Source: Chthoniobacteraceae bacterium
GTDB lineage: Bacteria; Verrucomicrobiota; Verrucomicrobiia; Chthoniobacterales; Chthoniobacteraceae
Direction: 5' to 3'
Length of the DNA: 64,000 bases
NCBI GenBank assembly: GCA_049521415.1
Contig: JBEKOV010000001.1
Coordinates: 28,808 to 92,807 of the forward strand
Part shown: positions 21,093 through 64,000 of the stretch, piece after piece
How the letters are laid out: each line of letters starts with the position of its first letter
Numbering within the stretch: position 1 is the first letter of the stretch
Translations under genes and position numbers: made by a program
Notes under the pieces: generated by a model
What the model saw: only the letters and a program-made list of their open reading frames with translations
Databases searched by the model: none
Told to the model about the DNA's origin: nothing

Positions 21093-21144
21093 GCAGCGCT
21101 TCCTTCGAGGGGACGGAACCCTTGGGGTGATTCTTCGTCTCTGT

Positions 21145-49902: not shown

Positions 49903-49999
49903 GACGCGAGCCGAGACCGGAGGCGTGGTGGAAGGGGTTGGGGCTCTCCCGCTGTGATTGCGATATTCATAAAGATGGGTGGCGGCGTCGATTCATCGG

Positions 50000-51943
50000 C
50001 TAGGGCACGTCATTGGCCGCGTTCGCCCGCGCCACGTATTGCATGATGTTCCAGCTAAACGGCAGCGACCGCGCGATCTGCCCGCTCTCCCGCTGCACAA
50101 CCAATTGATAGATCATCGCCAGCACCCTCGGCCCTCCGCTCGCCGGCGCATTCAAATCGTCAATCGCCTCCGTCACCCCCGAGGCCGTCAAATCAATCGG
50201 CAGCGAATAATAACTCTGCCCATCCTCGGTCTCGAGTTGGTCCGCCGCCGTCCAGCTTAGATCGATCACCGGGCTCGAATCCTCCACGGTCTTGCACACC
50301 AGCCAGATAGTCACCGCATCCTCCGTCTGGATCGGCGTGAACATCACCAGCCCAAAAGTCAGCGAGTCGCATTGGATCGTCTCGATGATCCCCGCGTTCT
50401 GGTAAAAGCTCGTCACCCCGCGCCCTCGCAGGTCAAATTGCAAATCAATCAGCCCCGGCGTTGAATCCAGATAACTCAGATACACCGGCACGCTCCCGCT
50501 TGTAACCCCTCCCGCCGCTGCCGCCGGCGCACTTACCGTAAGTCCCACTGGGACCGGCGCGCTCTCCCCCGTCCCATTCGTCGCCGTGATTTCAAACTGA
50601 TAAATCCCCGGCACGGTCACCGTCCCCGATAAAATCCCAGTGGAACCCCCCAACGCCAGCCCCGGCGGCAATTGCGTCGCGCTCCAGCTCGTCGGCTCGT
50701 TCGTCGCGTAGAATTGATAATTCAACGGCGCCCCCGCCGTCAGCGTCAGCGTTCCAGGCGCGGTCACCACCGGGTTTGACCCTCCCCCGCTCACCACGAA
50801 CGTAATGGACTGCTGGATGATCGGGAACCCCGCCGCAATAGCCGTAATCACCATCGGGTAAGTTCCTACCTCCGTGAAATTCCCGGTAATGATCGCCTGA
50901 TCTCCCAGGTTCTGCCCGATCTCGATGGTGCTCGGCGCGCCGGCCAGATACCAATTGATTAAGCTCGCCGATGATAGCGTCGCCGCCGTAATGACCGTCG
51001 CCACGGTGAGTCCCACCCCCACGTCCACCGTGATCGGCGCCTGGATCAAGGTGTCATAAGTCCCTGGCGCGATATCGAACAGGCAGTACCGCTGCATCGT
51101 CCCCGCGATCAACACCACTGGAAACCATCCAAATACATTCGGCGTCCCGCTCAGATAACCCGCCGAGTAACCAATCCCGCTCGGCACACCCTGCGGATAC
51201 ACCGCGTTCAACCCCGTGGTGGCAAGCGCGAACGCCGTGATCGGCTCGTTCCATGTCCCCGTCACCATCGCCCCGGCCGTAATATCGTTTTGATTCTGAC
51301 CGCTCAGATACGCGCATACTTCGAGTCCTCCCGAGACCGATGCCTCCCACGTCACCGGGCTCCCCTGCGGAGTAACCGAAGTCATTCCAGTGGACGCCAG
51401 CGCATCCGCGATGCTGAAAGTATTCGTCGTCACCGCCGCGACCAGCCCCAGATAATAAGCCGTCGATCCGCTTACGGTCCCCTGCAACAGCACCTTGTCT
51501 CCCACGCTGTAGCCGTTGGCGTTCAGCGTGAAGGTCGCCTCCGCTCCTCCGTCCAGGGAGCCCGAGTAAGTGATGCTCCGCGTCGTCACGTTCGTCCAGA
51601 GCCTGCTCACAAAATTTTGCGTCGCCGTCACCTCGTACTCCTCATTGTCCAAAGCGGTAATCGTCGCCGAATACGCGCTCGTCCCTCCGCTGGGCGAGAA
51701 CTGCGACGGCCCCGTCGTGCAAAATCCCAGGAAGATCACTTGGCACTTCACCGCCATGTCTCCATTCGACCCAGGGGCCGTGGTCTCTGAATCTTCAATC
51801 TGGATCGTATACCCGCTCGCCGCCGGATTCACCGTCGGCAATTGCACCTGGTACGCATTCCGCGCCAATATCTTAAAAGTGTAAGTCGTCCCGATATCAC
51901 ACGTTCCAGGCTGTAGCGGTGGATAAATCGTCGGCGTGCTCAT
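50000..51943 (-). CDS. large structural protein with Ig-like (He_PIG-type) repeats, candidate fibre or receptor-binding protein
   Basis: Start MSTPTIYPPL (ATG 51943); segments such as LPPGLALGGSTGILSGTVTVPGIYQFEITATNGTGES. Confidence 0.7.
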   Translation of the reverse strand: MSTPTIYPPLQPGTCDIGTTYTFKILARNAYQVQLPTVNPAASGYTIQIEDSETTAPGSNGDMAVKCQVIFLGFCTTGPSQFSPSGGTSAYSATITALDNEEYEVTATQNFVSRLWTNVTTRSITYSGSLDGGAEATFTLNANGYSVGDKVLLQGTVSGSTAYYLGLVAAVTTNTFSIADALASTGMTSVTPQGSPVTWEASVSGGLEVCAYLSGQNQNDITAGAMVTGTWNEPITAFALATTGLNAVYPQGVPSGIGYSAGYLSGTPNVFGWFPVVLIAGTMQRYCLFDIAPGTYDTLIQAPITVDVGVGLTVATVITAATLSSASLINWYLAGAPSTIEIGQNLGDQAIITGNFTEVGTYPMVITAIAAGFPIIQQSITFVVSGGGSNPVVTAPGTLTLTAGAPLNYQFYATNEPTSWSATQLPPGLALGGSTGILSGTVTVPGIYQFEITATNGTGESAPVPVGLTVSAPAAAAGGVTSGSVPVYLSYLDSTPGLIDLQFDLRGRGVTSFYQNAGIIETIQCDSLTFGLVMFTPIQTEDAVTIWLVCKTVEDSSPVIDLSWTAADQLETEDGQSYYSLPIDLTASGVTEAIDDLNAPASGGPRVLAMIYQLVVQRESGQIARSLPFSWNIMQYVARANAANDVP

Positions 51944-52551
51944 CCGTTGCCTCCCGCCGCGCGTCTCTTTGATTCCGCGCAAAAATTCTCAGCCCCCTTG
52001 ATCGCCGCCCCCTCGAACTCTTCATCGCTCGGCAACAGCGTCCGGTCCTGTTTCTGCGTCACGCTCCGGACCAGGATATACAGCGGCAGGATCGATTTCC
52101 CGTCCGGGCCCTTCATCGCGATGAAGTTGCACCCCTTTGGAATGAACAGCGAAAGCTGGTTCCACAGAAACCGCGCCCTCTGCCCGTACGCGATGGCGTG
52201 AATCGGAATCGCCAGGCTCTTCGCATTCCTGGGCGAAATCGTCACCGGCCCGAACGCCCGCCTCATCCCAGGATGATCAATGATCAGCGTCGCCGCATTC
52301 GAGTCCGCCTCCAGCGCTCCCGGTGACGCTACCTTCTCCGCCGCCGTCCCCAGGAACCCCGTCGGCGCCGCGCCCAGCGCTTCAGCCGTGTCATGCCTGC
52401 TCCCGGCCAGCCTCCGCAGATAATCCGCCGTCAGCACCTGCACTTCCTCGCCCATGGCCTGGTGCAGGTTCCGGCGCGCGAGACTCCCCGTCACGTCCCG
52501 CATCCAGCGCCGGCTTCCCGCGTCCTCGCGGATGGTGATGCGCACTCTCAT
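51940..52551 (-). CDS. virion morphogenesis-like protein (weak resemblance to the Mu G / tail-completion family)
   Basis: ATG 52551 forms ATGA with the upstream stop; ...AKSLAIPIHA...RARFLW... Confidence 0.5.
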   Translation of the reverse strand: MRVRITIREDAGSRRWMRDVTGSLARRNLHQAMGEEVQVLTADYLRRLAGSRHDTAEALGAAPTGFLGTAAEKVASPGALEADSNAATLIIDHPGMRRAFGPVTISPRNAKSLAIPIHAIAYGQRARFLWNQLSLFIPKGCNFIAMKGPDGKSILPLYILVRSVTQKQDRTLLPSDEEFEGAAIKGAENFCAESKRRAAGGNG

Positions 52552-53414
52552 TTCGACCACGCCTCCTTCATTGCCGCCCGCAGCTCGGGCGAGAGCCGCT
52601 CGTAGTCCGCGTCGATCTCCGCAAACGATGGCCGCAAACTCCCCTCCATCTTTGACGGCGCCTCCTCCGGCCCGATCAACCCCTCCCTCTCCGCTTCCTC
52701 ACGCCCCACTTCGCGCCATCCCATCCCGCTCCCAAACGCGAACGGCCAGTAAGGATTCCCGAGCCCGTCACGGAATAGCGCGCGGCTCCCGAGCGCCTCC
52801 CAGATCGGCGAGTCCTTCAGCGCCACCATCGGCCCGTCAATCGCCCCCGCCCAGCCCACGCTCTCCCCCGCCTCCGCCCACCGCTCATACCACCCCGGCG
52901 ATTCGCTCTTCGGGCTCCCGCGCGGCACCAGCCGCGGATACACCCTCACCAGTTCCCATGCCGGATACTCCCGCCGCCGGTACTCGCTGTTGCCGGCGAT
53001 CATCCGCCCATACCCCATCGCCATCCGCAAATTGGTTTGCAGCATCAGCTTCAGCCGGCCCGCGCTCGACAGGTCCTGGATCGTTCCCCGTTCCGCCATC
53101 GGAATCTTCCCAAAATCCTCCGGAAACCCCGTCGCGGGATCGTATCCAAGCGACTTGAGCTTCTCGTACATCTTCATGATTGCCGTCCCCATGTTGATCT
53201 TCCCGGTCAGCAGCTCGTCCACCACGTCGCTCAGCTCCTGCACCGCCTCCGCGTTGGTCATCCGCGCCGAGAACACCGAGCGAAAATGGACCTCCCTCCC
53301 CAATTCCATCAGCTCCTCGCTCGACATCCCCGTCGGCATGATATGCCGCGACCTCCATTGCTTGACCGCCTCCGTCAAATTCCCTCCCGCGTTATCCTCA
53401 AGCAGCGCGATCAT
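52548..53414 (-). CDS. putative head morphogenesis-like protein (weak, Mu F / SPP1 gp7-like)
   Basis: 288 aa; order and vague motif similarity only. Confidence 0.5.
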   Translation of the reverse strand: MIALLEDNAGGNLTEAVKQWRSRHIMPTGMSSEELMELGREVHFRSVFSARMTNAEAVQELSDVVDELLTGKINMGTAIMKMYEKLKSLGYDPATGFPEDFGKIPMAERGTIQDLSSAGRLKLMLQTNLRMAMGYGRMIAGNSEYRRREYPAWELVRVYPRLVPRGSPKSESPGWYERWAEAGESVGWAGAIDGPMVALKDSPIWEALGSRALFRDGLGNPYWPFAFGSGMGWREVGREEAEREGLIGPEEAPSKMEGSLRPSFAEIDADYERLSPELRAAMKEAWSK

Positions 53415-53725
53415 TACGTCGTCCCTCCCTGTTCCGGCGCAGGCTCGGCGAGGCCCTCCAGCAGCGCCGCCCCGATCTCCCGCTGCATCACCTCCGCCAG
53501 CGCAGGCTCCGCGTTCGCGTCCGCCAGCATCTTCCCAAACATCCCCTTCAATCCCTCGAACGCCGCAAGGTCCTTCGCCCGGATCGCCCCCTCCACCGCC
53601 TCGCAGATCGGCGCCATGTCATCCTCGAATGCCTTGGCTGCTTCGGCCTCGGCCGCATTGGGTCCAGCGTCACGCTGGCGGATCGCGTTCAAGATCGCCC
53701 GCGCCCTGTTCTGTACAGCCTTCAT
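53414..53725 (-). CDS. hypothetical Ala/Glu-rich protein
   Basis: 1-nt stop/start overlaps (TAATG) on both sides. Confidence 0.45.
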   Translation of the reverse strand: MKAVQNRARAILNAIRQRDAGPNAAEAEAAKAFEDDMAPICEAVEGAIRAKDLAAFEGLKGMFGKMLADANAEPALAEVMQREIGAALLEGLAEPAPEQGGTT

Positions 53726-54171
53726 CAGTAGGTCCCGTCCTCCTGGTTCGCCCTGAATTGCCGCCGCCGCCGCGTAATCGCCGGCGCCGGCTGCCCCTGC
53801 ATCTCCCCGCTCGCATCCGGATGATCCGGAGCCTCGACCCGCTTCCGGCTGTCGTCGATCCGCTTCAAATCGCTGATCTGGTTGCGCTCGTCCTCCGATT
53901 CGCTGCTGGAAAGGTCCAGCCGCAGCCGCCTCATCAAATCATAGAGAGCCAGCTTGACGGTGACGCTCTTCAGGCTGTTCGGCACTTTCGTGGCGTCGAT
54001 GTCCATGGTGTTCCCCGATGCCACTGCACGCCGCACCCGCGATACCGCGTTCGCAATCGCTTCGATGGCCGGGTCGGTCCCGCCCACCGCCATCGTGCGC
54101 GCCTTGTCAACGATCATCCCGTATCCCACGGCCTTGATGTCGTCAGCAGTGATGGTGGTCCAGTTGCTCAT
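53725..54171 (-). CDS. hypothetical protein (DUF1320/Mu gp36-like head-tail connector, weak)
   Basis: Start MSNWTTITADDIK (ATG 54171), ATGA-coupled. Confidence 0.45.
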   Translation of the reverse strand: MSNWTTITADDIKAVGYGMIVDKARTMAVGGTDPAIEAIANAVSRVRRAVASGNTMDIDATKVPNSLKSVTVKLALYDLMRRLRLDLSSSESEDERNQISDLKRIDDSRKRVEAPDHPDASGEMQGQPAPAITRRRRQFRANQEDGTY

Positions 54172-54374
54172 GCGTACCCCAGCGCCTCCCTCGCCTTCAC
54201 TTTTTTCCCGTGCATCGAAATGTGTCGGTCGTGCCACAAACCAAACCTCTCCAGGAGCGCGCGCGCTCTATCAAAGGTATCCACCATTACCCGCTCCCGA
54301 AACGGCCACCGCAGAATCGTTTCCCCGGTCACGAGATTCGTGGCCGTCACAATGTACCAATTTCTGCGCTTCAT
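54168..54374 (-). CDS. hypothetical small protein
   Basis: 68-aa ORF coupled to the downstream gene. Confidence 0.45.
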   Translation of the reverse strand: MKRRNWYIVTATNLVTGETILRWPFRERVMVDTFDRARALLERFGLWHDRHISMHGKKVKAREALGYA

Positions 54375-54465
54375 TTTCTCTGCGTCTCAGCGTCCCTGCG
54401 GGATTGATCCCCTTGGCCGCCGCCCCGCGCCCAAAATCGCGAGACGGCGGCGCTAACCAGGGAAA

Positions 54466-54960
54466 CTATTGGTTCGCCTCCACGATCGTGATCGAGTTCA
54501 CGGTCAGCGAACTCGTTCCCGATACGGTGATGCTCTTCAGGTACCACCAGGGCGCGTTGGCGGGGCCGCTCCCGCTCGTCAGCGCCGGCACATTGATGTA
54601 ATCCTGCACGACGCCCGTCCCCGTTATCGCCAGCCCCGAGGCCGCCAGCGGCACGGTGGTCGTGATCCCGTAGCTGAGCGTCCCGCTCGTCGCCGGGTCA
54701 GTCCCCGTCAGTGATGGCGCGAAGTTGAACGTCACCTGGCCGGTGCCCCCGGTCGTCAGTTGATAGTTCGGGATGATCGCAAACCCGGTCTTCGGATTCA
54801 CGTAAAACGCCTGCGTCGTGGCGCTCGTCGTTGCCGCGCCGGGCCACACGTTGGTGTTGGTCACCAGCACTGTCGCGTTGGCCGCCGCGATCTGGGCGTG
54901 GACCGCCGGCGCCATCAGCGCCAGCGTCCCCGCGAGGATGAGGTATTTGATTTTGTTCAT
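54466..54960 (-). CDS. 164-aa protein with signal-peptide-like N-terminus, Thr/Gly/Ala-rich beta-type sequence
   Basis: MNKIKYLILAGTLALMAPAVHA/Q; preceded by A-rich array S3 and followed by a GC hairpin. Confidence 0.65.
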   Translation of the reverse strand: MNKIKYLILAGTLALMAPAVHAQIAAANATVLVTNTNVWPGAATTSATTQAFYVNPKTGFAIIPNYQLTTGGTGQVTFNFAPSLTGTDPATSGTLSYGITTTVPLAASGLAITGTGVVQDYINVPALTSGSGPANAPWWYLKSITVSGTSSLTVNSITIVEANQ

Positions 54961-54996
54961 ACTTTTCGGATTTCTGATTTCGATTTTCGAATTTTG
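54961..54996 (-). repeat. A-rich array S3
   Basis: Minus strand CAAAATTCGAAAATCGAAATCAGAAATCCGAAAAGT directly abutting ATG 54960. Confidence 0.8.
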
Positions 54997-55006
54997 CCGC
55001 CGCGGC

Positions 55007-55303
55007 TCAGGACACGTTCTGCCGCAGCATCGACAGCGTGCTGGTCTGGTGAATATCCCGGCTCCAGTCCACCACGTGGCCCCGCCACAGGTTGTTCGGA
55101 GCCTGGTACGTGAACACGTTCCCCACGTACCCGTTCCCGCCCACGGTGAAGCATTTGAACGGGCTCGGATCGTACAGCGTCGCGCTCGGCACCTGGTAAT
55201 GCGTCAGGCACACCCCCTGCAGCAGCCGCTTCTTGTTCGCGGCCTGGTTCAGCCGCGTGGTGTCGTACACCACGTTCGCCACCAGGATGATCCCCGGAAC
55301 CAA
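55007..55303 (-). CDS. hypothetical protein
   Basis: TTG 55303 chosen so as not to overlap divergent gene 55322; the N-terminal part of the 154-aa ORF is Arg-rich. Confidence 0.35.
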   Translation of the reverse strand: MVPGIILVANVVYDTTRLNQAANKKRLLQGVCLTHYQVPSATLYDPSPFKCFTVGGNGYVGNVFTYQAPNNLWRGHVVDWSRDIHQTSTLSMLRQNVS

Positions 55304-55321
55304 TAAGCCAGAAACACAGCC

Positions 55322-56107
55322 ATGAAAAGATACGGACAAACTCTCACGTGGGGACCGCTTTCGGCCCCGGCATTTTTCAGCGGGGAACCTATTTCCTACT
55401 CGCTCAGGGACGGGGCGACCAAGCAGCTCATCGACGGGGCGGCGGGCGACTGGCTGGCGATGGCGCTGCACTCACGGAAGGCGGAGATCGCCTTCGAAGC
55501 GAAGTGCACGGTCGCCTCGACCAACTTCCTGGACCTGAGCGTTGGGGCGGCGATTGCGCTCTCCACGATCTCGAGCACGGGATCGATCCTTGTCTCGCGC
55601 GCGGTCGAGCGCTGGCGGCTGAACCAGGCGAAGACGGCCTCGATAGAGGCGCTGTGGCTGCCGGACGGGACGCCGAACAGCCCGGCGCTTGCGGGAACTA
55701 CGGGGACGGCGTTCACGCCGGACCAGAGCGGATCGACGATTGTGACGCCGGGATCGGCGCTCATATATTCGACCTACGGCTTCACGCACGCGAAGGGGCT
55801 GGTGCATGAGCTGACGCTGACGCAGAGCCTGCGCATCACCGAGGATGATCCGTCGCCCGACGGGCTGATCCTGGGGGCGGCGGCGGACGGGTACGAGCAG
55901 ACGATTAATCTGCTGTTGCTGGCGCAAATCCCGAGCACGACGAGTCCGATGACGGATTACCCGGCGGTGGGCAGCACACTGGTGATCGGGGGGGGAACTG
56001 CGTCCATGGCCGATTTCATCATCACCAACAGCGGGCCGGCGATGGAGATGGAAAAAGGGATGATGTACTCCATCGACGCGAGCTGGATTCCGCCGTTCAC
56101 AACCTGA
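55322..56107 (+). CDS. candidate major tail (tube) protein
   Basis: 261 aa, first gene of the rightward block, three genes before the tape-measure-like gene; position only. Confidence 0.55.
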   Translation: MKRYGQTLTWGPLSAPAFFSGEPISYSLRDGATKQLIDGAAGDWLAMALHSRKAEIAFEAKCTVASTNFLDLSVGAAIALSTISSTGSILVSRAVERWRLNQAKTASIEALWLPDGTPNSPALAGTTGTAFTPDQSGSTIVTPGSALIYSTYGFTHAKGLVHELTLTQSLRITEDDPSPDGLILGAAADGYEQTINLLLLAQIPSTTSPMTDYPAVGSTLVIGGGTASMADFIITNSGPAMEMEKGMMYSIDASWIPPFTT

Positions 56108-56140
56108 TCTCAAACAACCCAATGAAAGGCATACATCGAT

Positions 56141-56401
56141 ATGGAAACTAAACCAAGTCCCACCGCGGCTCCAGCCGCTGCACCCGCGCCCGCGGCTCCG
56201 AATGCCGCCGGCAAAGCCACCAAGGCCGAACTCAACGCGGCAATCGCCGAGGCCGACGCCATCGTGGCTTCCATCGCGAAGCTGCAGGCGTCGCTGAACG
56301 TGAATGACACCAAGTTCATCGCGGTGACCGTCGGCGTGGCGTCCGAGCGGCTGCAGGAAGCGCAACGGTATCTGCGGAACAAACTGCCGAAGGCGGTCTA
56401 G
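56141..56401 (+). CDS. hypothetical protein (tail assembly chaperone position)
   Basis: 86 aa, Ala/Pro-rich N-terminus then helical. Confidence 0.5.
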   Translation: METKPSPTAAPAAAPAPAAPNAAGKATKAELNAAIAEADAIVASIAKLQASLNVNDTKFIAVTVGVASERLQEAQRYLRNKLPKAV

Positions 56402-56404
56402 GCC

Positions 56405-57043
56405 ATGGAGGGGCCGGCCGCGGAAGAAGAAGACGGGCTTGCGGGGCTGCGGGAGCTGCAGGCGCAACTGGCCGGCACGGCGCAGAGCCCGTGGCAGCCG
56501 CGGTGCGTGGCGAGGGCGTTCCGGACTCCGGCGGCCTCGCATGCGTTTGTGTTCACGATGCAGGCGTGGATCGACCTGGATGCCGTACAGTCGCCCTTCC
56601 TGCTCGAAGAGCTGCCGGACCCGGACCTGGGGCATGAAGCGATCATCAGGGCCTTTGAAGAGGCGTTCGCGGCATTTGGCCATACGAGCACGACGCCGGC
56701 GGAATGCGCGCCGTTCGAATTGGCGCTGCTGGGCAAGAGCATGATTCGGGTGATCCGGCAGGGATTCGCGATGCGGCTGCGGATGAATCCGCCGAAGGGA
56801 ATGGAGAGCGGCGGCGGGGATGACGGATTCGGCGACTGGCTGCCGGTGATGGCGTGCCTGAAGGCGCAGCTCTATTTCGGCTGGGAAGAGGCGCTGGCGA
56901 TGCACGTGGAGAGGGCGCTGGCGGTGGTGAACGCGCACCGGCGCAACGAGGGATGGACGCCGGCGGAAACGCCGTATGCATTGAGAGACGTGTCCCCCGT
57001 GTCCCACGGGGGCGCGGAGAGCGGGGAGGAACAGCATGGCTGA
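56405..57043 (+). CDS. hypothetical protein (tail assembly chaperone position)
   Basis: 212 aa, overlaps the next gene by 8 nt. Confidence 0.5.
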   Translation: MEGPAAEEEDGLAGLRELQAQLAGTAQSPWQPRCVARAFRTPAASHAFVFTMQAWIDLDAVQSPFLLEELPDPDLGHEAIIRAFEEAFAAFGHTSTTPAECAPFELALLGKSMIRVIRQGFAMRLRMNPPKGMESGGGDDGFGDWLPVMACLKAQLYFGWEEALAMHVERALAVVNAHRRNEGWTPAETPYALRDVSPVSHGGAESGEEQHG

Positions 57044-58373
57044 GCCGGTCAAAATCGTCATCTCGGAGACGCGGGAGGGGAACGCGATCGACGAGGAGCA
57101 GCGAAGGATCGAGCAGCTCCACAAGGCGGCGGAGCAATACGCGAAGACGCCGGGGATGGAGGGGGCGGCGAAATCGGCGCGCGCCGAGGCGATGGAGCTG
57201 CAAAAGAAACAGCTTGGAACGAGGCTGGCGCAGGAGGCGCATGCGCGGGCGGCCGGCAACGGCGAGGCGGCGGACCAGGCGGCGCGCGAGGCGAAGGAGA
57301 TGGAGCGGACGATGCAGCTCCAGCGCAAGGGAGGGATGGGTTATGACCAAGCCGCGAAGACGGCGCGGCGGCAGCTCAACCAGGAGGACGAGGCGGCGGC
57401 GCTGAAGAAGGCGGGGATCGAGAAGATGGGCTATACGCGGGCGCGGCAGGAAGCGCTGACGCTGGCGCGGGAATTGGCGACGGGCGCGCCGACGGGGCGG
57501 ACCTTGAGCGCGCTGCTGGGGAACCTGATCGGAGGGATGGCGCCGGAGGCGCTGGCCGCCGCCGCTGGGATTGCGGCGCCGGTGGCGCTCGTTGGCGGCG
57601 CGTATCTGTTCAACCGCGACCAGAGGGAGCAGGATTACCAGGAGCAGAACAAGATGAGCGAGGAGCAGGCGGGGGATGAGCGCGCGCAGGAAATCGCGCG
57701 CAGCCCGCTGGGAAGCGACTCGGGGAGCTTCCAACAGGAGGTGAGCGATGAGAGCACGATCAAAAAAGATGAGGCGGATCGCGGGCGGCTGGAGCACGCG
57801 CGGAAGCACGCGTGGTTTGGGCTAAAAGACAAGCTTGCGAGCCTGACCGGAGGAAGATGGAAAACGCAGGAGCAGAGAGATCAAATCGACAACGAGAATG
57901 AGATCAAACGGGCCGAGCGCGACAAACGCGCGTCGCAAAAAAGCCTCAGGGAACAATGGAATACGGGGGGCGCGTATGATGAGAAAATCCTGGAAGACCT
58001 CTCGGAGCACAGCGTGGCTGGGGTGAAAAAGGCGACGGTCGACACCGCGAAGAAAAGCTGGATGGCGGCTTACCGCAGGTCCGTCGCGGAAGGGGCGAGC
58101 CGGGACGACGCGCTGAAGATCTCGGATTTGACGGCGAAGCAGGCGGATTGGGAACGCGCGCAGGCGCGCGGCGCGGGCCTTGTAAACGCGCAGACGGGCA
58201 ATGCCGGGGCGGCGGCGGCGGCGCGCTGGGCGGACACGGGCATCGTGGGGCCGGGGATGGACGCGCTGCTGGCGGAGATGCGCTCTTCGAAGGTCGCGTC
58301 GCAGGCCGCATTCGACAAGCTGACCGACAGCCAGGTGCGCGTGGATCAAAGCGGGAAGCCTTTGACGCCATGA
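57036..58373 (+). CDS. tape-measure-like protein
   Basis: Charged coiled-coil sequence with a central hydrophobic Gly/Ala segment LSALLGNLIGGMAPEALAAAAGIAAPVALVGGAYLF. Confidence 0.6.
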   Translation: MAEPVKIVISETREGNAIDEEQRRIEQLHKAAEQYAKTPGMEGAAKSARAEAMELQKKQLGTRLAQEAHARAAGNGEAADQAAREAKEMERTMQLQRKGGMGYDQAAKTARRQLNQEDEAAALKKAGIEKMGYTRARQEALTLARELATGAPTGRTLSALLGNLIGGMAPEALAAAAGIAAPVALVGGAYLFNRDQREQDYQEQNKMSEEQAGDERAQEIARSPLGSDSGSFQQEVSDESTIKKDEADRGRLEHARKHAWFGLKDKLASLTGGRWKTQEQRDQIDNENEIKRAERDKRASQKSLREQWNTGGAYDEKILEDLSEHSVAGVKKATVDTAKKSWMAAYRRSVAEGASRDDALKISDLTAKQADWERAQARGAGLVNAQTGNAGAAAAARWADTGIVGPGMDALLAEMRSSKVASQAAFDKLTDSQVRVDQSGKPLTP

Positions 58374-59161
58374 TTTACGGGACGCCGCCGGTAAAACTGG
58401 AGACCGATGTGACCGACGTGATCGGCATCCGGACGCTGGTGCTGGGGCAGATGTGGCAACCGTCGGCGAGCAACCTCTCGCAGGAGCAGATCGACGCGGA
58501 GTCGCCGGACATTCCGGGGGTGCCTGGGGGGCTGATTCTGGTGGGGCAGCAGTGCCGACCATTCGGCGGATGCTACAAGACGACGTGGACCTTTGAGGGG
58601 ATCCTCGGCGACGGGAAATCGGTCACGTTCAAGGATCGCACCAACTCGCTTGATTACGGGTTCGATCCGGGGTTCGCCCAGGTGCCGATCCAGACGCATC
58701 CCTATTTTCAGGACATGCTGACGCAATTCGGCGGCTACCCGGACCCGTCCAGCAGCACGGTGATCTGGCCCACGACGATGCCGGCGGCGTCTGCATCTGG
58801 GGGCGGAAGCACGGGGATGCCGGGGGGATCGAGCGCTGGGAGCGCGACGCCGAACCCGATGTTTGGGCGGCAGGATTATTTCTCGCTGGATGGGCAATAT
58901 TACATGCGGTACGCGCTGCTGACCAAGCCGACCGGGTATTCGAATATCAACCTGATCGTGGATACGAGCGAGCTGCCAGGCGATCCCCCGAGCGATCTGC
59001 CGAGCGACCGCAACTGGCTGGTGGTTCCTCCCACCTACAAGCGGCGCGGGCTGATCTTTGAGGTGATGGAAACGTACTGGCTGAGCTATGAGGGAGGGTG
59101 GAACATCCCAAGCTATACCAAGCCCAGCGGCCAGGGCACATGGAGCATCCCGACCTCATGA
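58370..59161 (+). CDS. hypothetical tail protein (distal tail position)
   Basis: Start MIYGTPPVKL (ATG 58370), ATGA-coupled to the tape-measure stop. Confidence 0.55.
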   Translation: MIYGTPPVKLETDVTDVIGIRTLVLGQMWQPSASNLSQEQIDAESPDIPGVPGGLILVGQQCRPFGGCYKTTWTFEGILGDGKSVTFKDRTNSLDYGFDPGFAQVPIQTHPYFQDMLTQFGGYPDPSSSTVIWPTTMPAASASGGGSTGMPGGSSAGSATPNPMFGRQDYFSLDGQYYMRYALLTKPTGYSNINLIVDTSELPGDPPSDLPSDRNWLVVPPTYKRRGLIFEVMETYWLSYEGGWNIPSYTKPSGQGTWSIPTS

Positions 59162-59697
59162 GCGGCGCCGCGCAAATCAGGCCGGGAGTGGGACTCAGGA
59201 CCGTCAGAACGATGATGGGCTTCGGCATGACGTCAGCCGGCGGAGGCGGTTCGTTTCTGCATCCCTTCTATCCCACCCTCAATGGGATTGCGGGCGTCCA
59301 GTTCTCACGCGGTCTGGTGAGCTATATCGAGCCGACGATCGAGGGCGTACCGATCTCCGGGATGGTCAACGGGGTGCAGGGGCCGCCGCCGGTGCTGCCG
59401 CTCGATCCGAATGTGATCGGCGCCGGCGACAACCGCACGTGGGCCTGCGCGGAGATCACGGTCGACGCGAAGGGGATGATCAGCCCGGCTTCCACCGTGG
59501 TAATGGCGCACCGGGCGACGTGGTTTCTCCAGGACCCGCTGGGAAAGACGGGGCGCTGCCCGGTGTGCATGATCCTCTGGAATGGCAGAGTGCCCTCGCA
59601 GATTTTTCACATTCTCTATTTCAACCCGGTGGCGCAGATGGTGACGCTGCCGACAGGTGGCACCGGCGCGGGCGTCGTGAAGTTTTTCTTCCTGTGA
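59158..59697 (+). CDS. hypothetical tail protein
   Basis: Start MSGAAQIRPG (ATG 59158), ATGA-coupled. Confidence 0.55.
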   Translation: MSGAAQIRPGVGLRTVRTMMGFGMTSAGGGGSFLHPFYPTLNGIAGVQFSRGLVSYIEPTIEGVPISGMVNGVQGPPPVLPLDPNVIGAGDNRTWACAEITVDAKGMISPASTVVMAHRATWFLQDPLGKTGRCPVCMILWNGRVPSQIFHILYFNPVAQMVTLPTGGTGAGVVKFFFL

Positions 59698-59719
59698 CCA
59701 GCATGATGCCGGACCCGAT

Positions 59720-59756
59720 ATGAAAATTTCGAAACTCTCGAAAATCCCATCGAACC
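59720..59756 (+). repeat. A-rich array S4
   Basis: ATGAAAATTTCGAAACTCTCGAAAATCCCATCGAACC forms the first codons of gene 59720. Confidence 0.7.
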
Positions 59757-60817
59757 CGGACGCCGTGGCGATCATGCCTGGGAGCGGGGCGCGCGTCTCG
59801 ATGCGAGGAGGGATCGGGCGGACGCTGCAACTGAGCCCGGAGACGGGCTGGAAGCATCCGTGGCAGATCACGCTGCTGTGGGACGGGACGCGGCAATTGT
59901 GGACATCGACCATGAAGGCGGGCTTCGTGAACGGGGAGTGCCCGGTCGTCATCTCAACGGCCGGGAGCGACGCGAACCCGGCGAACTGGCAGCAATTCGG
60001 CATCAACCCGCTCACCGGGGAGCCGTTTTTTTCGGCATGGGTTTTTAATAATGCGGCGCCCGCCATCGCGCCCGCGACGACGGTGTGGCTGCCTCTTTAC
60101 TCGAATCCGTTGATCGACCTGAGCTGGTATAACATCGGGTCCGACGACGCGACGGCGCAGAACGCGGTGCCGCAATTCTTTCTCAACCTCGGGGTGACGC
60201 CGGCGACGCCGATTGACCCTGACGATCCCGACCAATCCGCGGGGGCTCCCCCCCCGGCCGGGAACCGGCTCTTGCGCGCCTGTGATTTGATTTTGCACCA
60301 GCCGCACGTGGCACTGACCTCCCAGATCACGCTGGCGCCTGGGATCGTCACCGGGGAGAGCAACGTGTCGCAGACGCTCGGGCTCACGCAGATCGACCCA
60401 AGCGATACGCTGAAGATGTACGCCCAGGCAGGCGCCTTCAGCCCGGAGGACGCAATCGCCGCCGGCATCGATCCGTCGACCGGCGATTACACGGAGCCCG
60501 CTTACGACGAGATTCTGATTGGGACGGCTTACCTGTTGAGTCCGCCGAATACCGAGCCCTACTCGATGCCCGATCAGACCTGGCAGCCGTATGTCAGCCA
60601 CTCGCTGTTTTGGAATCTGTTTTGGGCGCAACCGGAATTTCAGCCCACGCCCGCCGAAGCTACCGACGCATTCGGCCAGCTCGCCCAACTCACCTCTGTG
60701 CTCGGGGCCGGAGCGGGATCGGTGGCGATAAATTACATCACCTCGTCGCTCACCGATGCATACCAGGCCGCGACGAACATACTCGTTGCGCAATCCATGG
60801 CCGGCTCTTTCTGGTAG
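59720..60817 (+). CDS. tail-associated hypothetical protein, 3' end truncated by transposon insertion
   Basis: Stop codon TAG 60815-60817 lies inside the transposon terminal repeat; the frame continues at 63243 once the element is removed. Confidence 0.7.
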   Translation: MKISKLSKIPSNPDAVAIMPGSGARVSMRGGIGRTLQLSPETGWKHPWQITLLWDGTRQLWTSTMKAGFVNGECPVVISTAGSDANPANWQQFGINPLTGEPFFSAWVFNNAAPAIAPATTVWLPLYSNPLIDLSWYNIGSDDATAQNAVPQFFLNLGVTPATPIDPDDPDQSAGAPPPAGNRLLRACDLILHQPHVALTSQITLAPGIVTGESNVSQTLGLTQIDPSDTLKMYAQAGAFSPEDAIAAGIDPSTGDYTEPAYDEILIGTAYLLSPPNTEPYSMPDQTWQPYVSHSLFWNLFWAQPEFQPTPAEATDAFGQLAQLTSVLGAGAGSVAINYITSSLTDAYQAATNILVAQSMAGSFW

Positions 60818-60821
60818 TGTC

Positions 60822-61286
60822 CTAATTTGAAATGCTGGGAGGCGGCGGAACGGCTCCCGAATTGTCATTCTGGATATTCAAATTCACCTGCGGCGCAGGA
60901 GGTCCTAGTCCCATGCTGAAAAGGATTCTGTGCGGAATTTGGTCGTCAATTGCAAATATCTTCGATTGGGTGAACTGCCCGTCCATGCTGGGAATGGCCC
61001 TAATCACGGTATTCTTGGCAAAGAGCCCATCTATAGACCTCCCTGATAGCGTTGGAGTCCCCGAAGGATCAGGCGTCCCGCCAACAGTCACAACGATTGG
61101 CGCATTTCCGATGTAATCGCTATTGATTTCAATCCGAGCCCCCGGGGGCTCGGATATGATCTGGATTTGATAGCCACTGGTTGGCAATCGCTCGGACTGA
61201 GCCATGGTTTGCTGAATTGGAGGAGTGTTTGACGCGCACCCCGCCATGAGGAGAATCAGGGCGGCAAAACTGCTGCGAAGGATCAT
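60822..61286 (-). CDS. lipoprotein with PEGA-like domain (transposon cargo)
   Basis: MILRSSFAALILLMAGC lipobox-like; IISEPPGARIEINSDYIGNAPIVV PEGA-type motif. Confidence 0.7.
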   Translation of the reverse strand: MILRSSFAALILLMAGCASNTPPIQQTMAQSERLPTSGYQIQIISEPPGARIEINSDYIGNAPIVVTVGGTPDPSGTPTLSGRSIDGLFAKNTVIRAIPSMDGQFTQSKIFAIDDQIPHRILFSMGLGPPAPQVNLNIQNDNSGAVPPPPSISN

Positions 61287-61389
61287 GGGGCTATCAATGG
61301 TGATTTTTTGCTCCTTGGTAAAGCTGTTTACACAATATGGCCGTTGTGGTAGCGTCTTTCCCGTATGGAGCTTGTGCCGACTGATTTTG

Positions 61390-61695
61390 CTACCCGGAGG
61401 GAGGAGGAGTATTTGGAGCGGGGGATTCGCGTAGCCAAATCTTGGACAATTCTCGGCGATCTAATAGGGCAGCTAATGCCGGATTGCGATTCTCCAGCTT
61501 CTCCAGAAGCCTCTGGTGAAATTTCTCCTCCTGCATCTGTAAATCAGTGACAATATCCTTCTCGCTTCGTCCTGTGATGGACGAAAGCAGAAAGCCGACC
61601 AAAGTTTCTAAGGCGTAGATTTTACCTAATAGTTCTAGGTTTTCTGCCTTCAACTCAAGAATTGCGATGTGGAGATCATCCTTTTTTTTGCTCAT
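61390..61695 (-). CDS. hypothetical helical protein (cargo)
   Basis: 101 aa, ATGA-coupled to the upstream ORF. Confidence 0.5.
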   Translation of the reverse strand: MSKKKDDLHIAILELKAENLELLGKIYALETLVGFLLSSITGRSEKDIVTDLQMQEEKFHQRLLEKLENRNPALAALLDRRELSKIWLRESPAPNTPPPSG

Positions 61696-61985
61696 ATCTT
61701 TTTCGCCGCTGCCGCAATCGCAACCTTAACCGCCATCTGCGCGGAATCCACAGGCGGAATCTCCAGCACGGCAATCGTCTTCGTTTTACCGTCCTCCTCG
61801 TAGCTCCAGGCATAACAGCGTTTCGCCTTGGGATGGCCGGTAATGTCGTAAATCTCTACGACCCCCTCCCACGCCACCAGCTTTCGGAAGACTTCGCGAA
61901 CGGGTACAGACTCGACGTGCTTCGCTTTGGCACCATGAACAGCCAGAATCGCCCGCTGGTGCTCTTTAATCGTCTCAGGCTGCAT
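61692..61985 (-). CDS. hypothetical conserved-looking small protein (cargo)
   Basis: 97 aa; VEIYDITGHPKAKRCYAWSYEE...VLEIPPVDSAQMAVKVAI; start overlaps the transposase stop by 11 nt. Confidence 0.55.
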   Translation of the reverse strand: MQPETIKEHQRAILAVHGAKAKHVESVPVREVFRKLVAWEGVVEIYDITGHPKAKRCYAWSYEEDGKTKTIAVLEIPPVDSAQMAVKVAIAAAAKKI

Positions 61986-62799
61986 CTATGAGGTCCGTGA
62001 TGGAAAGATGCGTCCTCTCGATTCCTGCGGCCATTGCCGGGGTGCAACGGATGGTGGAGTGCGTTTTCACGAAGTTGTAATATGCCAGATGCAAGGCGAT
62101 GGCAGCTTTGAAATTCTCCAGCTTTTTTGAAAATGCCAGCGTGAGCCGGGCGAGCCGCCTGCAATGGGTCCGAACCGTCAGGTTTGAACGCTCGATATAG
62201 GACGTGCAGACAAGCTCCGGGATTGGGTCGCCATTGATGGCGCTCTTGAACACAGAAGAGAGGCGGGAGGGGCTGTACCTACGGGCCTCCTCTTTGGAGG
62301 GGGCACAGTATTCTTTTACAATCTGCCCGTAGTCCACGTCCCCGCCGAAGGCCATTTCCACGGCATCGGGGTAGGCTCCCATGGCATCGGAGGACAACTG
62401 GATGCGATTGCATAGCCGCGCAGCCAAATCCTGCATGAAAGTGACGGCGTGGTAGCGGTCCCGCTGTCCCACCAGAAACGAGGGCATCAGCTTTGTCTCG
62501 GGGTCGATGGATAGAAACGTCCAGACATCCCCGAGCCCGGCGCGGCGATCTACGGCATTGGCGCGTTTCTGCTTCTTGCCCACGAATCCCCAAATCTCAT
62601 CCACTTCAATGCGGGTGCAGAGCAGGGCGCGCATTTTGGCGTCCATCAGCTTCTCGCATCCCTGCCCGACCCGGACGCCCAGCCGCATGATCGTGTCGCG
62701 GTGGATGCCGGTCATGCGCTCAATGGAGCGGATGGAGTTTCCTTCCGCGAGAGCGGAAATCACGGTCGCCTGTTTTTCAGTGGGAAGCACGTTTGCCAT
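61975..62799 (-). CDS. IS1 family DDE transposase
   Basis: Start MANVLPTEKQ (ATG 62799); N-terminal HTH GNSIRSIERMTGIHRDTIMRLG; DDE-like EVDEIWGFVGKK, SSDAMGAYPD, YIERSNLTVRTHCRRLARLTLAFSKK. Confidence 0.8.
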   Translation of the reverse strand: MANVLPTEKQATVISALAEGNSIRSIERMTGIHRDTIMRLGVRVGQGCEKLMDAKMRALLCTRIEVDEIWGFVGKKQKRANAVDRRAGLGDVWTFLSIDPETKLMPSFLVGQRDRYHAVTFMQDLAARLCNRIQLSSDAMGAYPDAVEMAFGGDVDYGQIVKEYCAPSKEEARRYSPSRLSSVFKSAINGDPIPELVCTSYIERSNLTVRTHCRRLARLTLAFSKKLENFKAAIALHLAYYNFVKTHSTIRCTPAMAAGIERTHLSITDLIDAA

Positions 62800-62809
62800 G
62801 GGAATAAAT

Positions 62810-62852
62810 GTAGACGCAAAATTAACTTGTGTCCACATATTTTTGCGTCTAC
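62810..62852. promoter_or_regulatory. 12-bp perfect inverted repeat just upstream of the transposase start (candidate operator or promoter)
   Basis: GTAGACGCAAAA (62810-62821) and TTTTGCGTCTAC (62841-62852), 19-bp spacer. Confidence 0.5.
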
Positions 62853-62888
62853 GAAAAAGAAAGGGCCGGGACTTGTGATTCCCGGCCC
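62853..62888 (-). terminator. rho-independent terminator (minus strand)
   Basis: Stem GGGCCGGG/CCCGGCCC with a 10-nt loop, followed on the minus strand by TTTCTTTTT. Confidence 0.6.
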
Positions 62889-62894
62889 TCAATT

Positions 62895-62967
62895 GGGAGC
62901 GTAAGCTAACCGGCAAACCCCGCGTTTCTACACCCCGGGATTGCGAGTTCGAGCCTCGCCGCTTCCA
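62895..62967 (+). ncRNA. 73-nt tRNA-like element or possible pseudo-tRNA, CTA at the anticodon position
   Basis: Acceptor GGGAGCG/CGCTTCC (one G-U), perfect T arm GCGAG-TTCGAGC-CTCGC, U8 A14 G18 G19 A21 U33 in register; D stem 2/4 pairs and anticodon stem 3/5 pairs. Confidence 0.4.
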
Positions 62968-62970
62968 AAA

Positions 62971-63153
62971 TTATGCGGTTGCCTCCAAAAGTCGCTCCCT
63001 CATCCATTCCCCCCGGCGCTGGCCTTGGGCCTTGGCTTTGCGGTCGATCTTTTGGGCCTCTTCCTTACTGAAGCGGAGGGGCCACACGAAGGCACGAGGG
63101 GACGCGGAACGCGGTCGCCCCGGACCCCTTGGGGTTTCAAGTCGTTTGCTCAT
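62971..63153 (-). CDS. small ribbon-helix-helix / MobC-like DNA-binding protein (first gene inside the right transposon end)
   Basis: 60 aa; RAFVWPLRFSKEEAQKIDRKAKAQGQRRGEWMRERLLEA fits the RHH beta-alpha-alpha pattern. Confidence 0.55.
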   Translation of the reverse strand: MSKRLETPRGPGRPRSASPRAFVWPLRFSKEEAQKIDRKAKAQGQRRGEWMRERLLEATA

Positions 63154-63242
63154 GGTGATTTACGTATACCATAAATCGGTTGTGTGGTCAACTGATTCGT
63201 TGGCTAGTGAAATCCGGGATGGGGTCAAATTAGGACACTACC

Positions 63243-63453
63243 CTCTTTCTGGACGCCGACGGGGGGCGGCTCGACATCGCTTTTTCCTCCAGCCCCTCCC
63301 GTGCCGGTCACCGCGCCCTCCGGGAACGGCATGGACAAGAATGGGCTCATCCGGGCGCAGGCCGCGGCGGCGGCGCTCGCGCTGGCATCGCAACAACTCG
63401 ACCCGGCTTTCCCCTTCACGGCACTGCAATTCAACGTAGCCCTCCTTTCCTGA
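63243..63453 (+). pseudogene. displaced 3' segment of the interrupted tail gene
   Basis: Open frame through the right target duplication (tct ttc tgg acg...) in the same codon phase as the left copy; ends at TGA 63451-63453. Confidence 0.65.
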
Positions 63454-63475
63454 ACCTCATTGAGGCCTTCCAACT

Positions 63476-64000
63476 ATGCCTAATCCATCTCAGCTCGTGA
63501 ATGTCGATTTGACCGGGAAAACCAGCGACTGGACACCCCCTCCGATTACCTTCGGCGAGGATCTGACGCTGGTGCTGCGATTCACGATTGACAACAACGG
63601 CAGCGCGATCTCGCCAAACATGACGATCACCGGGATGAAGGCGAGTGTGGGCAATGTAGATGCGCGGCCCCTGGGGGGCGGCACATGCCTAGTGATCGGA
63701 AACGGGCCGGCCAGCTCGGCCAATACGACGGCGCCCATCCTCTTCAATGATCTTCCAAGCACGGTGGCGGCGAAGATCAATGCGTTGTCGGGAGTGGTGG
63801 CAGCCTATGGGATATGCAAGGCGTTCTCGGTTCCCGGTGGCTACGCGCTCTTCTTTGGGACCAGGGCGGCGGAAGTCCCGATCTCGGCGACGAATAATCT
63901 GCTGTGGCCGGTGAGTTTTGTGCGCGTGAGCGCGTGGCAGAATGGAGCGGAGTGGGTTCACCAGGTGCGCTTCACGCAGGCGCCGGTGGCTTTTACCTCT
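63476..64000 (+). CDS. hypothetical phage structural protein, 3' end outside window; not in the ORF track
   Basis: ATG 63476, 175 codons open to the window edge: MPNPSQLVNVDLTGKTSDWTPPPITFGEDLTLVLRF... Confidence 0.6.
   Translation, partial: MPNPSQLVNVDLTGKTSDWTPPPITFGEDLTLVLRFTIDNNGSAISPNMTITGMKASVGNVDARPLGGGTCLVIGNGPASSANTTAPILFNDLPSTVAAKINALSGVVAAYGICKAFSVPGGYALFFGTRAAEVPISATNNLLWPVSFVRVSAWQNGAEWVHQVRFTQAPVAFTS

Follow-up and report, generated by a model that had tools for sequence, protein, structure and literature searches.

An IS1-family element has almost certainly inserted into what was formerly a continuous 431-codon gene of a prophage of the Mu-like-head kind; the host genome, represented here by a 64,000-bp stretch of DNA (the window), is that of a Chthoniobacterales-like soil bacterium (Verrucomicrobiota). 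An insertion and a single restored gene of this length had been proposed in the initial annotation, and that model has gained independent support from homologues of the protein, from the continuous junction of a syntenic metagenome locus (L001), and from the 8-bp duplications that flank related elements. The split gene and the ends of the element were located as follows.

59720..60817, + strand: first 365 codons of the split tail-module gene (its 5' part), up to ...MAGSFW, followed by TAG from the IS terminal repeat
60805..60812, no strand: left target-site duplication CTCTTTCT, 8 bp
60813..63242, - strand: IS1-family element with passenger genes, 2430 bp, transposase on the minus strand
60813..60830, + strand: left terminal inverted repeat GGTAGTGTCCTAATTTGA, a GGnnnTG-type end that holds the in-frame TAG
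63225..63242, - strand: right terminal inverted repeat, complementary to the left repeat at 18 of 18 positions
63243..63250, no strand: right target-site duplication CTCTTTCT, 8 bp
63251..63453, + strand: remaining 66 codons of the split gene (its 3' part), TPTGGG…LDPAFPF…ALLS, followed by TGA

As first described, the 365-aa ORF ends ...GSFW and takes its stop codon (TAG, 60815-60817) from the left terminal repeat of the element, and every coordinate given for it proved correct. The identical 365-aa product was also called on two further assemblies (L127 and L128). Excision of 60813-63250 (2438 nt) produces a 1296-nt ORF of 431 codons that terminates at TGA 63451-63453, with the 66-aa tail exactly as previously quoted. 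The right join for this ORF is 60812 to 63251, where the GG at 63251-63252 completes the W codon; the join originally suggested for translation (59720-60812 plus 63243-63453) includes the duplication twice, giving 1304 nt and a shift out of frame. Because GG both begins the inverted repeat and continues the target, the direct repeat appears 10 bp long. Neither a stop nor a frameshift is present in the 3' part, and its in-frame ATG at 63331 is the counterpart of the start of a small separate ORF in split-form relatives. Since 32-38% of all 66-codon segments of the GC-rich window, whatever the frame, contain no stop (13% after shuffling), the open 66-codon frame is not significant alone, and the case for a continuous gene is best taken to rest on homology evidence instead.

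Full-length homologues of about 430 aa were sought, as had been recommended, and the nearest of them span the break: P0003 (431 aa, 84% identity) and P0002 (433 aa, 85% identity) cover 99-100% of the joined ORF. Extension by at least 60 aa beyond W365 was seen in 92 of the 94 homologues, and the FWTPTGGG, DK and LDPxFPY motifs of the C-terminal 66 aa were likewise kept in 92 of 94. Homologues consistently ending at GSFW, or a non-coding tail, would have spoken against a continuous gene; the homologues were instead found to continue, and the C-terminal 66 aa to be conserved. Conservation is 0.525 in the tail versus 0.521 in the body, and dN/dS comes to 0.150 over the 3' 66 codons versus 0.142 over the 5' 365 codons. 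The 3' segment thus shows the same purifying selection as the rest of the gene. Residues 381-431 were modelled by AF2 at pLDDT 87-91. The syntenic locus L001 has an uninterrupted nucleotide junction (...GGCTCTTTCTGGACGCCGACGGGGGGCGG...); it aligns to window positions 57607-60814 and 63243-64000, and the two stretches abut there, sharing just the duplicated bases. No intact allele of exactly the same lineage was found.

The element has a GC content of approximately 47-60%, versus approximately 60-65% in the phage genes on either side, and no further copy of its 18-nt repeat was found in the window even when 3 mismatches were allowed (0.02 expected by chance). Its ends (GGTAGTG) and its 8-bp duplication match the description of the IS1 family in ISfinder, with GGnnnTG ends and a DR of 8-9 (PMC10425158, Table 8). 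The following genes and features were identified within it.

60822..61286, - strand: passenger ORF, 154 aa, with a lipoprotein-like N-terminus (…LLMAGC) and a PEGA domain
61390..61695, - strand: passenger ORF, 101 aa, no family match
61692..61985, - strand: 97-aa ORF that overlaps the stop of the transposase gene and is conserved alongside transposases of this group
61975..62799, - strand: transposase, 274 aa, single ORF, IS1 family (DDE_Tnp_IS1)
62793..62822, + strand: promoter-like site facing out of the IS to the 3' fragment (consensus match only)
62861..62890, - strand: terminator-like hairpin and T-run upstream of the transposase start (consensus scan only)
62895..62967, + strand: tRNA-like sequence whose acceptor and T arms are good and whose anticodon position reads CUA
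62971..63153, - strand: passenger ORF, 60 aa, whose NikA/MobA/VapB-like (ribbon-helix-helix type) matches are weak, all under curated cut-offs

The transposase scored 36.6 bits against Pfam PF03400 DDE_Tnp_IS1 (cut-off 24.1) and 54.7 bits against NCBIfam transpos_IS1 (NF033558), the latter being under the equivalog cut-off of 100. It has more than 7700 homologues of approximately 274 aa, many of them named IS1 family transposase, and the nearest is 86% identical. On this evidence the element is a distant member of the IS1 family with a single-ORF transposase. It resembles classical IS1 in its DDE transposase with the IS1 Pfam domain, its GGnnnTG ends and its 8-bp duplication, as well as in having MITE-like derivatives and bigger cargo-carrying relatives with the same ends. 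However, classical IS1 is 740-1180 bp in length and carries insA/insB with a programmed frameshift, whereas this element is 2430 bp, has one 274-aa transposase ORF, and contains in addition the conserved 97-aa companion, three other ORFs and the tRNA-like sequence. We take it to fit the single-ORF, ISMhu11-like IS1 subgroup in ISfinder, whose members can presumably reach several kb and carry passenger genes. In 28 fetched loci, among them L130 and L132, a homologue of the 97-aa ORF adjoins the transposase; the 154-aa ORF, which scored 22.5 bits against PF08308 (cut-off 20.8), is confined to this copy among the fetched loci. The tRNA-like sequence was under the Rfam threshold and was not called by ARAGORN.

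Ends identical over 18 nt were found in many phyla, across at least 120 genome stretches, documenting an IS1-like group that includes MITE and cargo-carrying derivatives. These related elements range from 146 bp to 3.9 kb, with a perfect 8/8 duplication in 27 of the 51 inverted repeat pairs, and the copies occupy unrelated sites, each with its own 8-bp duplication (for example L130, 3623 bp, CAAGCCTT, and L132, 2688 bp, ATCCCATG). No second identical copy of the element was found, and the exact transposase is on record in one copy only.

The interrupted gene is located in the tail module of the prophage, downstream of the tube gene and of the gene in the tape-measure position.

55322..56107, + strand: tail tube protein, 261 aa, duplicated-domain T5/P74-26 type, opening the tail block
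57036..58373, + strand: 445-aa Ala/Glu/Lys-rich protein in the tape-measure position, assigned by position only
63476..64000, + strand: next tail-module gene, start only, running off the window; homologues 769-894 aa

The AF2 model of the tube protein (pLDDT 76.6) matched the tube proteins of SH-Ab15497, T5, DT57C and P74-26 in Foldseek with a probability of 1.00. Genes of 373-500 aa syntenic with the 445-aa gene are found in L001, L125 (Chthoniobacter flavus Ellin428), L133 and L134, and the order tube - 86 aa - 212 aa - 445 aa - 263 aa - 185 aa - 431 aa - 769 aa is kept in the same four loci. The start of the next tail-module gene has 93% aa identity to L001 11320-11841, with intergenic spacing about as in L001. 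A GH108 endolysin is encoded at 48494-49069. The module resembles those of siphophages such as T5, DT57C and P74-26, both in the duplicated-domain fold of its tube protein and in its gene order, in which the tube gene is followed by two small genes, one for a long coiled protein and several distal tail genes, but no similarity to the tail-tip proteins of T5, lambda, Mu or JBD30 was detected for the 431-aa protein or its neighbours. The 431-aa family was found in eight IMG/VR contigs, seven of them at 42-48 kb. Neither the 431-aa protein nor its 94 homologues had a Pfam or PHROG match, and the protein itself had no PDB sequence match, no Foldseek PDB match at E<=0.001 and no match in a tblastn search of 50,697 phage genomes; its sole match in BFVD was an uncharacterised 164-aa Caudovirales protein (E 7e-5). 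The earlier designation as a tail gene holds insofar as the gene lies in a siphovirus-type tail module, while likeness in sequence or fold to named tail proteins was not found. The position supports assignment of the product as a distal tail-region protein, and this places a hypothetical-protein family of approximately 100 members, from Chthoniobacterales genomes and soil-type metagenomes, in the distal tail region of Mu-like-head siphophages.

The relatives L133 and L134 carry the Mu-type head genes of Mu-like siphophages (Portal_Mu and the Mu protease, Mu-like_Pro_N) upstream of their tail genes. In the window no portal or protease gene was found, and the capsid-position gene persists only as a fragment.

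55010..55333, - strand: capsid-position gene remnant, C-terminal residues 211-318 only (108 aa), at the breakpoint of an inverted block

This remnant was recognised using the 318-aa protein of L133 (tblastn), and its junction is identical in L127 and L128. An intact Mu-like head, that is a portal, a protease/scaffold and a whole major capsid gene, is thus lacking in the window, and the prophage is already a rearranged, head-less remnant. Since the portal, the protease and most of the capsid-position gene were already gone, the IS is not what broke the phage. The initial annotation had also described the tail module as disrupted or as producing a C-terminally truncated protein; truncation of the gene was borne out and loss of its function is likely, but the island was defective beforehand.

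In the history that we propose, the 2430-bp element transposed into the distal tail-module gene, duplicating 8 bp of target. The TAG of its inverted repeat (GG-TAG-TG) is in frame and stops the 5' part at ...GSFW after 365 aa, and the last 66 codons are stranded 2.4 kb downstream without a start of their own. Most likely the protein would lose its conserved C-terminal module, and the 3' fragment and the next tail gene are expected to be subject to polarity because every called ORF of the IS is antisense to the operon. The perfect repeats and duplication, the 3' fragment free of stops and frameshifts, and the shared signature of purifying selection mark the insertion as evolutionarily recent. 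As the prophage is already head-less, the simplest view is that the element struck decaying phage DNA with neutral effect. Insertion of an IS into a prophage gene is an ordinary kind of event of low novelty which leaves current understanding unchanged; this clean, fully documented case of prophage decay is mainly of use for annotation, the 365-aa ORF and the 66 codons being one gene.

It is very improbable that the gene halves were wrongly joined during assembly through a repeated IS located elsewhere. L127 does stop 6 nt short of the right end of the IS and L128 stops inside it, as assemblers do at repeats, and the right junction is known from the contig of the window only, a metagenome scan for it having found nothing. 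However, such a chimera would yield neither an exact 8-bp target duplication around perfect inverted repeats nor an element-free junction equal base for base to the continuous L001 sequence over the site; moreover three assemblies (the contig of the window, L127 and L128) share an identical left junction, and downstream synteny and intergenic spacing are preserved. Least credible of all is a programmed intervening element that, like skin, the nifD element or active-lysogeny switches, would be excised precisely and under regulation to restore the tail gene when required. Precise removal does restore the ORF, and extra genes including a small DNA-binding-type ORF are present, but profile searches of the element found no tyrosine or serine recombinase, its sole recombinase being the DDE IS1-type transposase. 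The unrelated sites, many phyla and differing 8-bp duplications of relatives with identical ends are the behaviour of a transposable rather than a site-specific element, and in the rest of the tail-gene family this site is uninterrupted.

Loss of function is considered likely rather than certain because the family exists in both fused and split forms: in distant phage relatives each part has a gene of its own, and the boundary between those genes falls 2 codons from where the element inserted. In the IMG/VR contigs L139-L143 the first protein (336-348 aa) ends ...G[KR]FWT[VC] followed by a stop, and within a few tens of nt lies a separate ORF of 43-53 aa that aligns to the C-terminal ~43 aa of the long form and has an invariant L-x-P-x-F-P motif (LDPxFP, or LEPxFP in two); a first protein ending ...FWT[VC] with a separately translated small peptide is thus a viable architecture. 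The insertion might accordingly be tolerated here, with tail function kept by the 365-aa product together with a peptide of 40-50 aa whose translation would restart at GTG 63301 or ATG 63331, a reproduction of the two-gene arrangement of those relatives, although we consider this unlikely. The ATG (MDKNG...) aligns with the natural start M-x-G-x-DK, and the promoter-like site of the element faces the fragment. Yet all examined members of the 40-85%-identity group that contains this gene are fused (92 of 94), the truncated product is without the two residues after FW and the entire PTGGG linker, no ribosome-binding site or promoter is convincingly assigned to the 3' fragment, and the called IS ORFs are all antisense to the operon. 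In a prophage without head genes there is also probably no function left to preserve. Less likely still is a broader reading, in which the IS cut at a natural fusion/fission joint so that the tail protein works as two polypeptides, and in which the IS1-like group mobilises functional cargo, including a CUA (amber-reading) tRNA-like gene beside the inverted repeat that supplies the in-frame TAG. Simple truncation of the gene by a recent IS with intact inverted repeats and duplication, alongside head-gene deletion and inversion, agrees with prophage decay by IS insertion as otherwise known, the one oddity being a site only 2 codons from the natural gene-fission boundary of the family.

The tail-region gene is split by a 2430-bp element (60813-63242), and the two junctions have the following layout.

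59720-60817, + strand: 5' part of the split gene, 365 aa, ...AQSMAGSFW followed by TAG
60805-60812 and 63243-63250: 8-bp direct duplication, CTCTTTCT, flanking the 2430-bp element
60813-60830: left terminal repeat, GGTAGTGTCCTAATTTGA, 18 nt
60815-60817: TAG stop of the 365-aa ORF, inside the left terminal repeat
63225-63242: right terminal repeat, 18 nt, a perfect inverted copy of the left

The initial annotation had the 365-aa ORF ending in GSFW with its TAG inside the left terminal repeat, and these coordinates hold in the sequence. The direct repeat is visible as 10 bp rather than 8, because GG both opens the inverted repeat and continues the target. Removal of 60813-63250 gave a 1296-nt ORF of 431 codons with its TGA at 63451-63453, so that 365 and 66 codons are joined without a frame change and the predicted 66-aa tail is reproduced exactly. 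The join proposed for checking this (60812 to 63243) includes both copies of the duplication and breaks the frame, a slip that leaves the claim itself unaffected. Since stop-free 66-codon windows are common in this GC-rich window (32-38% in any frame, versus 13% in a shuffle), the open 3' frame alone proves little. No further copy of the 18-nt repeat was found in the 64-kb window with up to three mismatches allowed (chance expectation 0.02).

Comparison with relatives indicates that the split gene was once continuous. A search of 5.8 billion protein clusters using the joined sequence as query returned 109 relatives, and full-length homologues of about 430 aa, for which a search had been proposed, were the closest: P0003, of 431 aa, at 84% identity and 100% coverage, and P0002, of 433 aa, at 85% and 99%. 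Nearly all of the remaining relatives are 385-450 aa in length, with more than 90% of the query covered. Conservation of the last 66 residues, the other check proposed, was also borne out, as mean conservation is equal in the tail (0.525) and the body (0.521), and some of the motifs that the family conserves best lie past the break (G-x-FWTPTGGG, DK, LDPxFP[YF] and F..LL, in alignments of 19 and 95 sequences). In 92 of 94 homologues, 60-77 residues follow the position of W365. Among the relatives, P0005 (548 aa, from a Chthoniobacteraceae MAG) has an N-terminal extension of approximately 115 aa with GA.GL-type repeats, which may be a leader rich in repeats or the result of a start called in the wrong place.

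P0003 is encoded on a 66-kb JGI metagenome contig, L001, that is syntenic with the window. Positions 7928-11095 of L001 align to 57607-60814 of the window and positions 11086-11844 to 63243-64000, so that the two window stretches abut in L001 with the duplicated bases alone common to both. The L001 sequence is uninterrupted across the site (...ATGGCGGGCTCTTTCTGGACGCCGACGGGGGGCGG...), and is a natural "empty site" in a relative. Between the window and L001 the 5' 365 codons gave a dN/dS of 0.142 and the 3' 66 codons one of 0.150, near-equal values which indicate that the 3' fragment remained coding sequence through essentially the whole of the divergence time. The inverted repeats and the duplication are perfect and no secondary lesions were seen; the insertion is recent. 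No intact allele of this exact lineage was found in the protein database, and the 50-aa GTG-started 3' fragment is not on record as a called gene. A scan of JGI metagenome contigs for the exact empty-site pattern gave 0 matches, in a collection that is evidently incomplete, as L001, which carries the pattern, was not returned.

The inserted element carries the following features.

61692-61985, - strand: companion ORF, 97 aa, overlapping the transposase stop codon by 11 nt
61975-62799, - strand: transposase ORF, 274 aa
62895-62967, + strand: tRNA-like sequence, Rfam tRNA 27.6 bits versus a gathering score of 29

The 274-aa protein matches Pfam DDE_Tnp_IS1 above the cut-off and NCBIfam transpos_IS1 below its equivalog cut-off. 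Its homologues of about 274 aa number more than 7700; many are named "IS1 family transposase", and the nearest is 86% identical. The end of the element, GGTAGTG, and its 8-bp duplication fit the IS1 family, for which ISfinder gives ends of GGnnnTG and direct repeats of 8-9 bp (PMC10425158, Table 8). GTDB representative genomes hold the exact 18-nt end GGTAGTGTCCTAATTTGA in at least 120 stretches, spread over Acidobacteriota, Verrucomicrobiota, Planctomycetota, Proteobacteria, Binatia, Bacteroidota, Nitrospirota and further groups. Elements with this end include MITE-like units from 146 bp, plain IS of approximately 1.0-1.3 kb and cargo carriers of up to 3.9 kb; among the 51 inverted-repeat pairs at these loci, 27 have perfect 8-bp duplications. 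The transposases of elements with identical 18-nt ends share merely about 65-78% DNA identity.

The two closest relatives of the element have identical inverted repeats: the one at locus L130 spans 3623 bp with duplication CAAGCCTT, and the one at L132 spans 2688 bp with duplication ATCCCATG. In both, an ORF of 97-99 aa overlaps the stop of the transposase, while the remaining cargo differs. The 97-aa ORF adjoins the transposase in 28 fetched loci and matched no family in Pfam or NCBIfam; it is therefore an uncharacterised accessory gene of this IS group. Found in this copy alone among the fetched loci are a 154-aa PEGA lipoprotein-like ORF, a 101-aa ORF and a 60-aa ribbon-helix-helix-like ORF. 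All called ORFs of the element are antisense to the tail operon, and GC content is approximately 47-60% within the element versus 60-65% in the flanking phage genes. The element is thus a bona fide IS1-family member of the single-ORF branch that carries cargo, and is probably autonomous. An exact look-up of the transposase returned the same locus only, with no other identical copies on record, and a literature search on ISMhu11 or IS1 cargo elements gave nothing usable.

The 431-aa protein is not nameable from similarity. Neither it nor its 94 aligned homologues matched Pfam or PHROG, and it had no match in a PDB profile search or in a tblastn search of 50,697 phage genomes. Its AF2 model is confident (pLDDT 82.9, pTM 0.77; pLDDT 87-91 in the C-terminal module). 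Foldseek with this model found nothing in the PDB at E<=0.001, and the sole match in BFVD was an uncharacterised 164-aa Caudovirales protein (E 7e-5). The tail block and the region before it contain the following.

48494-49069, + strand: endolysin, GH108 with PG_binding_3, phrog_315, E 1e-35, adjoining the inverted block
50000-55333, - strand: block inverted versus its orientation in relatives
55010-55333, - strand: remnant of the capsid-position gene, residues 211-318 only (C-terminal third), abutting the tube gene
55322-56107, + strand: tail tube protein, first gene of the block, 261 aa, modelled from 44 homologues, pLDDT 76.6

The 261-aa model matches, at probability 1.00, the duplicated-domain tail tubes of SH-Ab15497, T5 (pb6; the tip protein in 7qg9), DT57C and P74-26. 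In T5 and P74-26, tube proteins with a duplicated domain assemble into trimeric rings. The genes follow in the order tube (261), 86, 212, 445 (tape-measure position), 263, 185, 431 and approximately 769 aa, an order shared from the tube to the 769-aa gene by L001, by cultured Chthoniobacter flavus Ellin428 (L125) and by the relatives L133 and L134. Upstream of the tail block, L133 and L134 carry Portal_Mu and Mu-like_Pro_N, together with connector-sized genes and, in the capsid position, a gene of 318 aa. The 431-aa family is also present in eight IMG/VR viral contigs, seven of 42-48 kb and one of 21 kb. Neighbouring genes gave weak PHROG and Pfam hints: He_PIG with a "tail protein" PHROG (3e-7), a head-tail adaptor (1e-3) and Mu gp36 (2e-3). 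With a conserved context and no nameable similarity, the term "tail gene" is justified by where the gene lies, which is the distal tail or tail-tip part of a siphophage with a Mu-like head. The tube type, together with the Mu-type portal and protease of the relatives, suggests a Mu-like-head, T5-like-tube siphophage lineage in Chthoniobacterales; a literature search on Chthoniobacter prophages gave nothing usable.

The inversion of 50000-55333 is relative to L125, L133 and L134, and also to the tail block of the window; this head-proximal block contains connector-sized genes and 288-aa, 206-aa and 660-aa He_PIG proteins. Nowhere in the 64 kb was a portal, a protease or a capsid N-terminus detectable. 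The missing head genes and the capsid remnant indicate that the prophage was already broken and that the IS struck a head-less remnant. The GH108 endolysin is probably the lysis gene of the same remnant. In L001, the closest relative, the phage cluster ends directly beside a ribosomal-protein/secY/adk/map operon (13807-21296), and in C. flavus it adjoins VWA, sigma-factor and tatC genes, so integration sites differ between lineages.

We consider it very likely that an IS1-family element transposed recently into the gene, duplicating 8 bp. The inverted repeat would have brought an immediate in-frame TAG, cutting the protein at residue 365 and leaving the 66-codon 3' fragment orphaned, with inactivation and polarity as the likely effects in a prophage that was already in decay. 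Slippage between the 8-bp repeats would restore the gene on the rare occasions when it removes the element precisely. A chimeric assembly is highly improbable. The truncated 365-aa product was also called on two further, independent assemblies, L127 (JGI 3300041432; window 49720-63236) and L128 (Logan SRR13781414; window 51782-61628), and as both are 100% identical to the window over these stretches, the left junction is reproducible; the rearranged capsid-remnant/tube junction is likewise present in both. The right junction is seen in the window's contig alone, as L127 stops 6 nt short of the right end of the element, L128 stops within it, and a scan of JGI metagenome contigs for the right-junction pattern gave 0 matches. 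Such ends are typical assembly breaks at repeats, and an exact target duplication with a base-perfect junction of the L001 type is not expected of a chimera. Even less credible is a programmed intervening element, which would here be without a site-specific recombinase and whose relatives transpose to unrelated sites. The breaks at 63236 and 61628 suggest more copies of the IS or of end-sharing relatives in those communities, or heterogeneity at the site.

The 365-aa and 3' pieces could still cooperate if the latter were expressed, and a natural precedent exists. In five IMG/VR contigs of distant phage relatives (L139-L143; approximately 10890-11180 per locus) the homologue is 336-348 aa, ends in ...G[KR]FWT[VC] or ...HLWTV, and is followed in all five within a few tens of nucleotides by a separate 43-53-aa ORF. 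This small ORF aligns with the last 43 or so residues of the long form; an M-x-G-x-DK-like start is present in 3/5, and L-x-P-x-F-P is invariant in 5/5 (LDPxFP, or LEPxFP in two). The small gene being homologous to the C-terminal module of the fused form (405-435 aa), the family exists both split and fused, with the joint two codons from the IS site, and the in-frame ATG at 63331 (MDKNG...) matches the position at which the small ORF naturally begins. However, the close relatives are all fused, no start signals are shown for the 3' fragment, the IS genes are antisense to the operon and the phage is head-less anyway, so we regard such a tolerated split as unlikely. Of the earlier proposal that the insertion disrupted the tail module of the island or truncated its protein, the truncation at residue 365 stands and disruption is likely, in an island that was head-less before the IS arrived. 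The two most distant database homologues (P0108 and P0109) end in ...FWST and ...FWTT, and were rejected as support for a natural stop at this point since at locus L135 synteny ends there and no small ORF follows; L135, too, looks like a truncated remnant.

Insertion of an IS into a structural gene of a prophage, with the ORF recovered on in-silico excision, is textbook biology; the element adds a member to the known IS1 family, and the tail protein family is uncharacterised in a conventional context. Three by-products are possibly worth a separate look: the existence of both a fused and a split architecture, the IS ends that are identical across phyla and bound MITEs as well as cargo carriers, and the tRNA-like sequence with CUA.

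This tRNA-like sequence was not called by ARAGORN on the window, and its D and anticodon stems are poor. Copies are present at L130 (3648-3720) and L131 (1377-1449). An att-site remnant was ruled out, as the sequence is 93-94% identical in the closest IS relative, where it is turned the other way with respect to the transposase. In that relative ARAGORN calls a tRNA with anticodon CTA (amber-reading), and a compensatory double change distinguishes the copies at one acceptor-stem pair, A4-U69 versus C4-G69.
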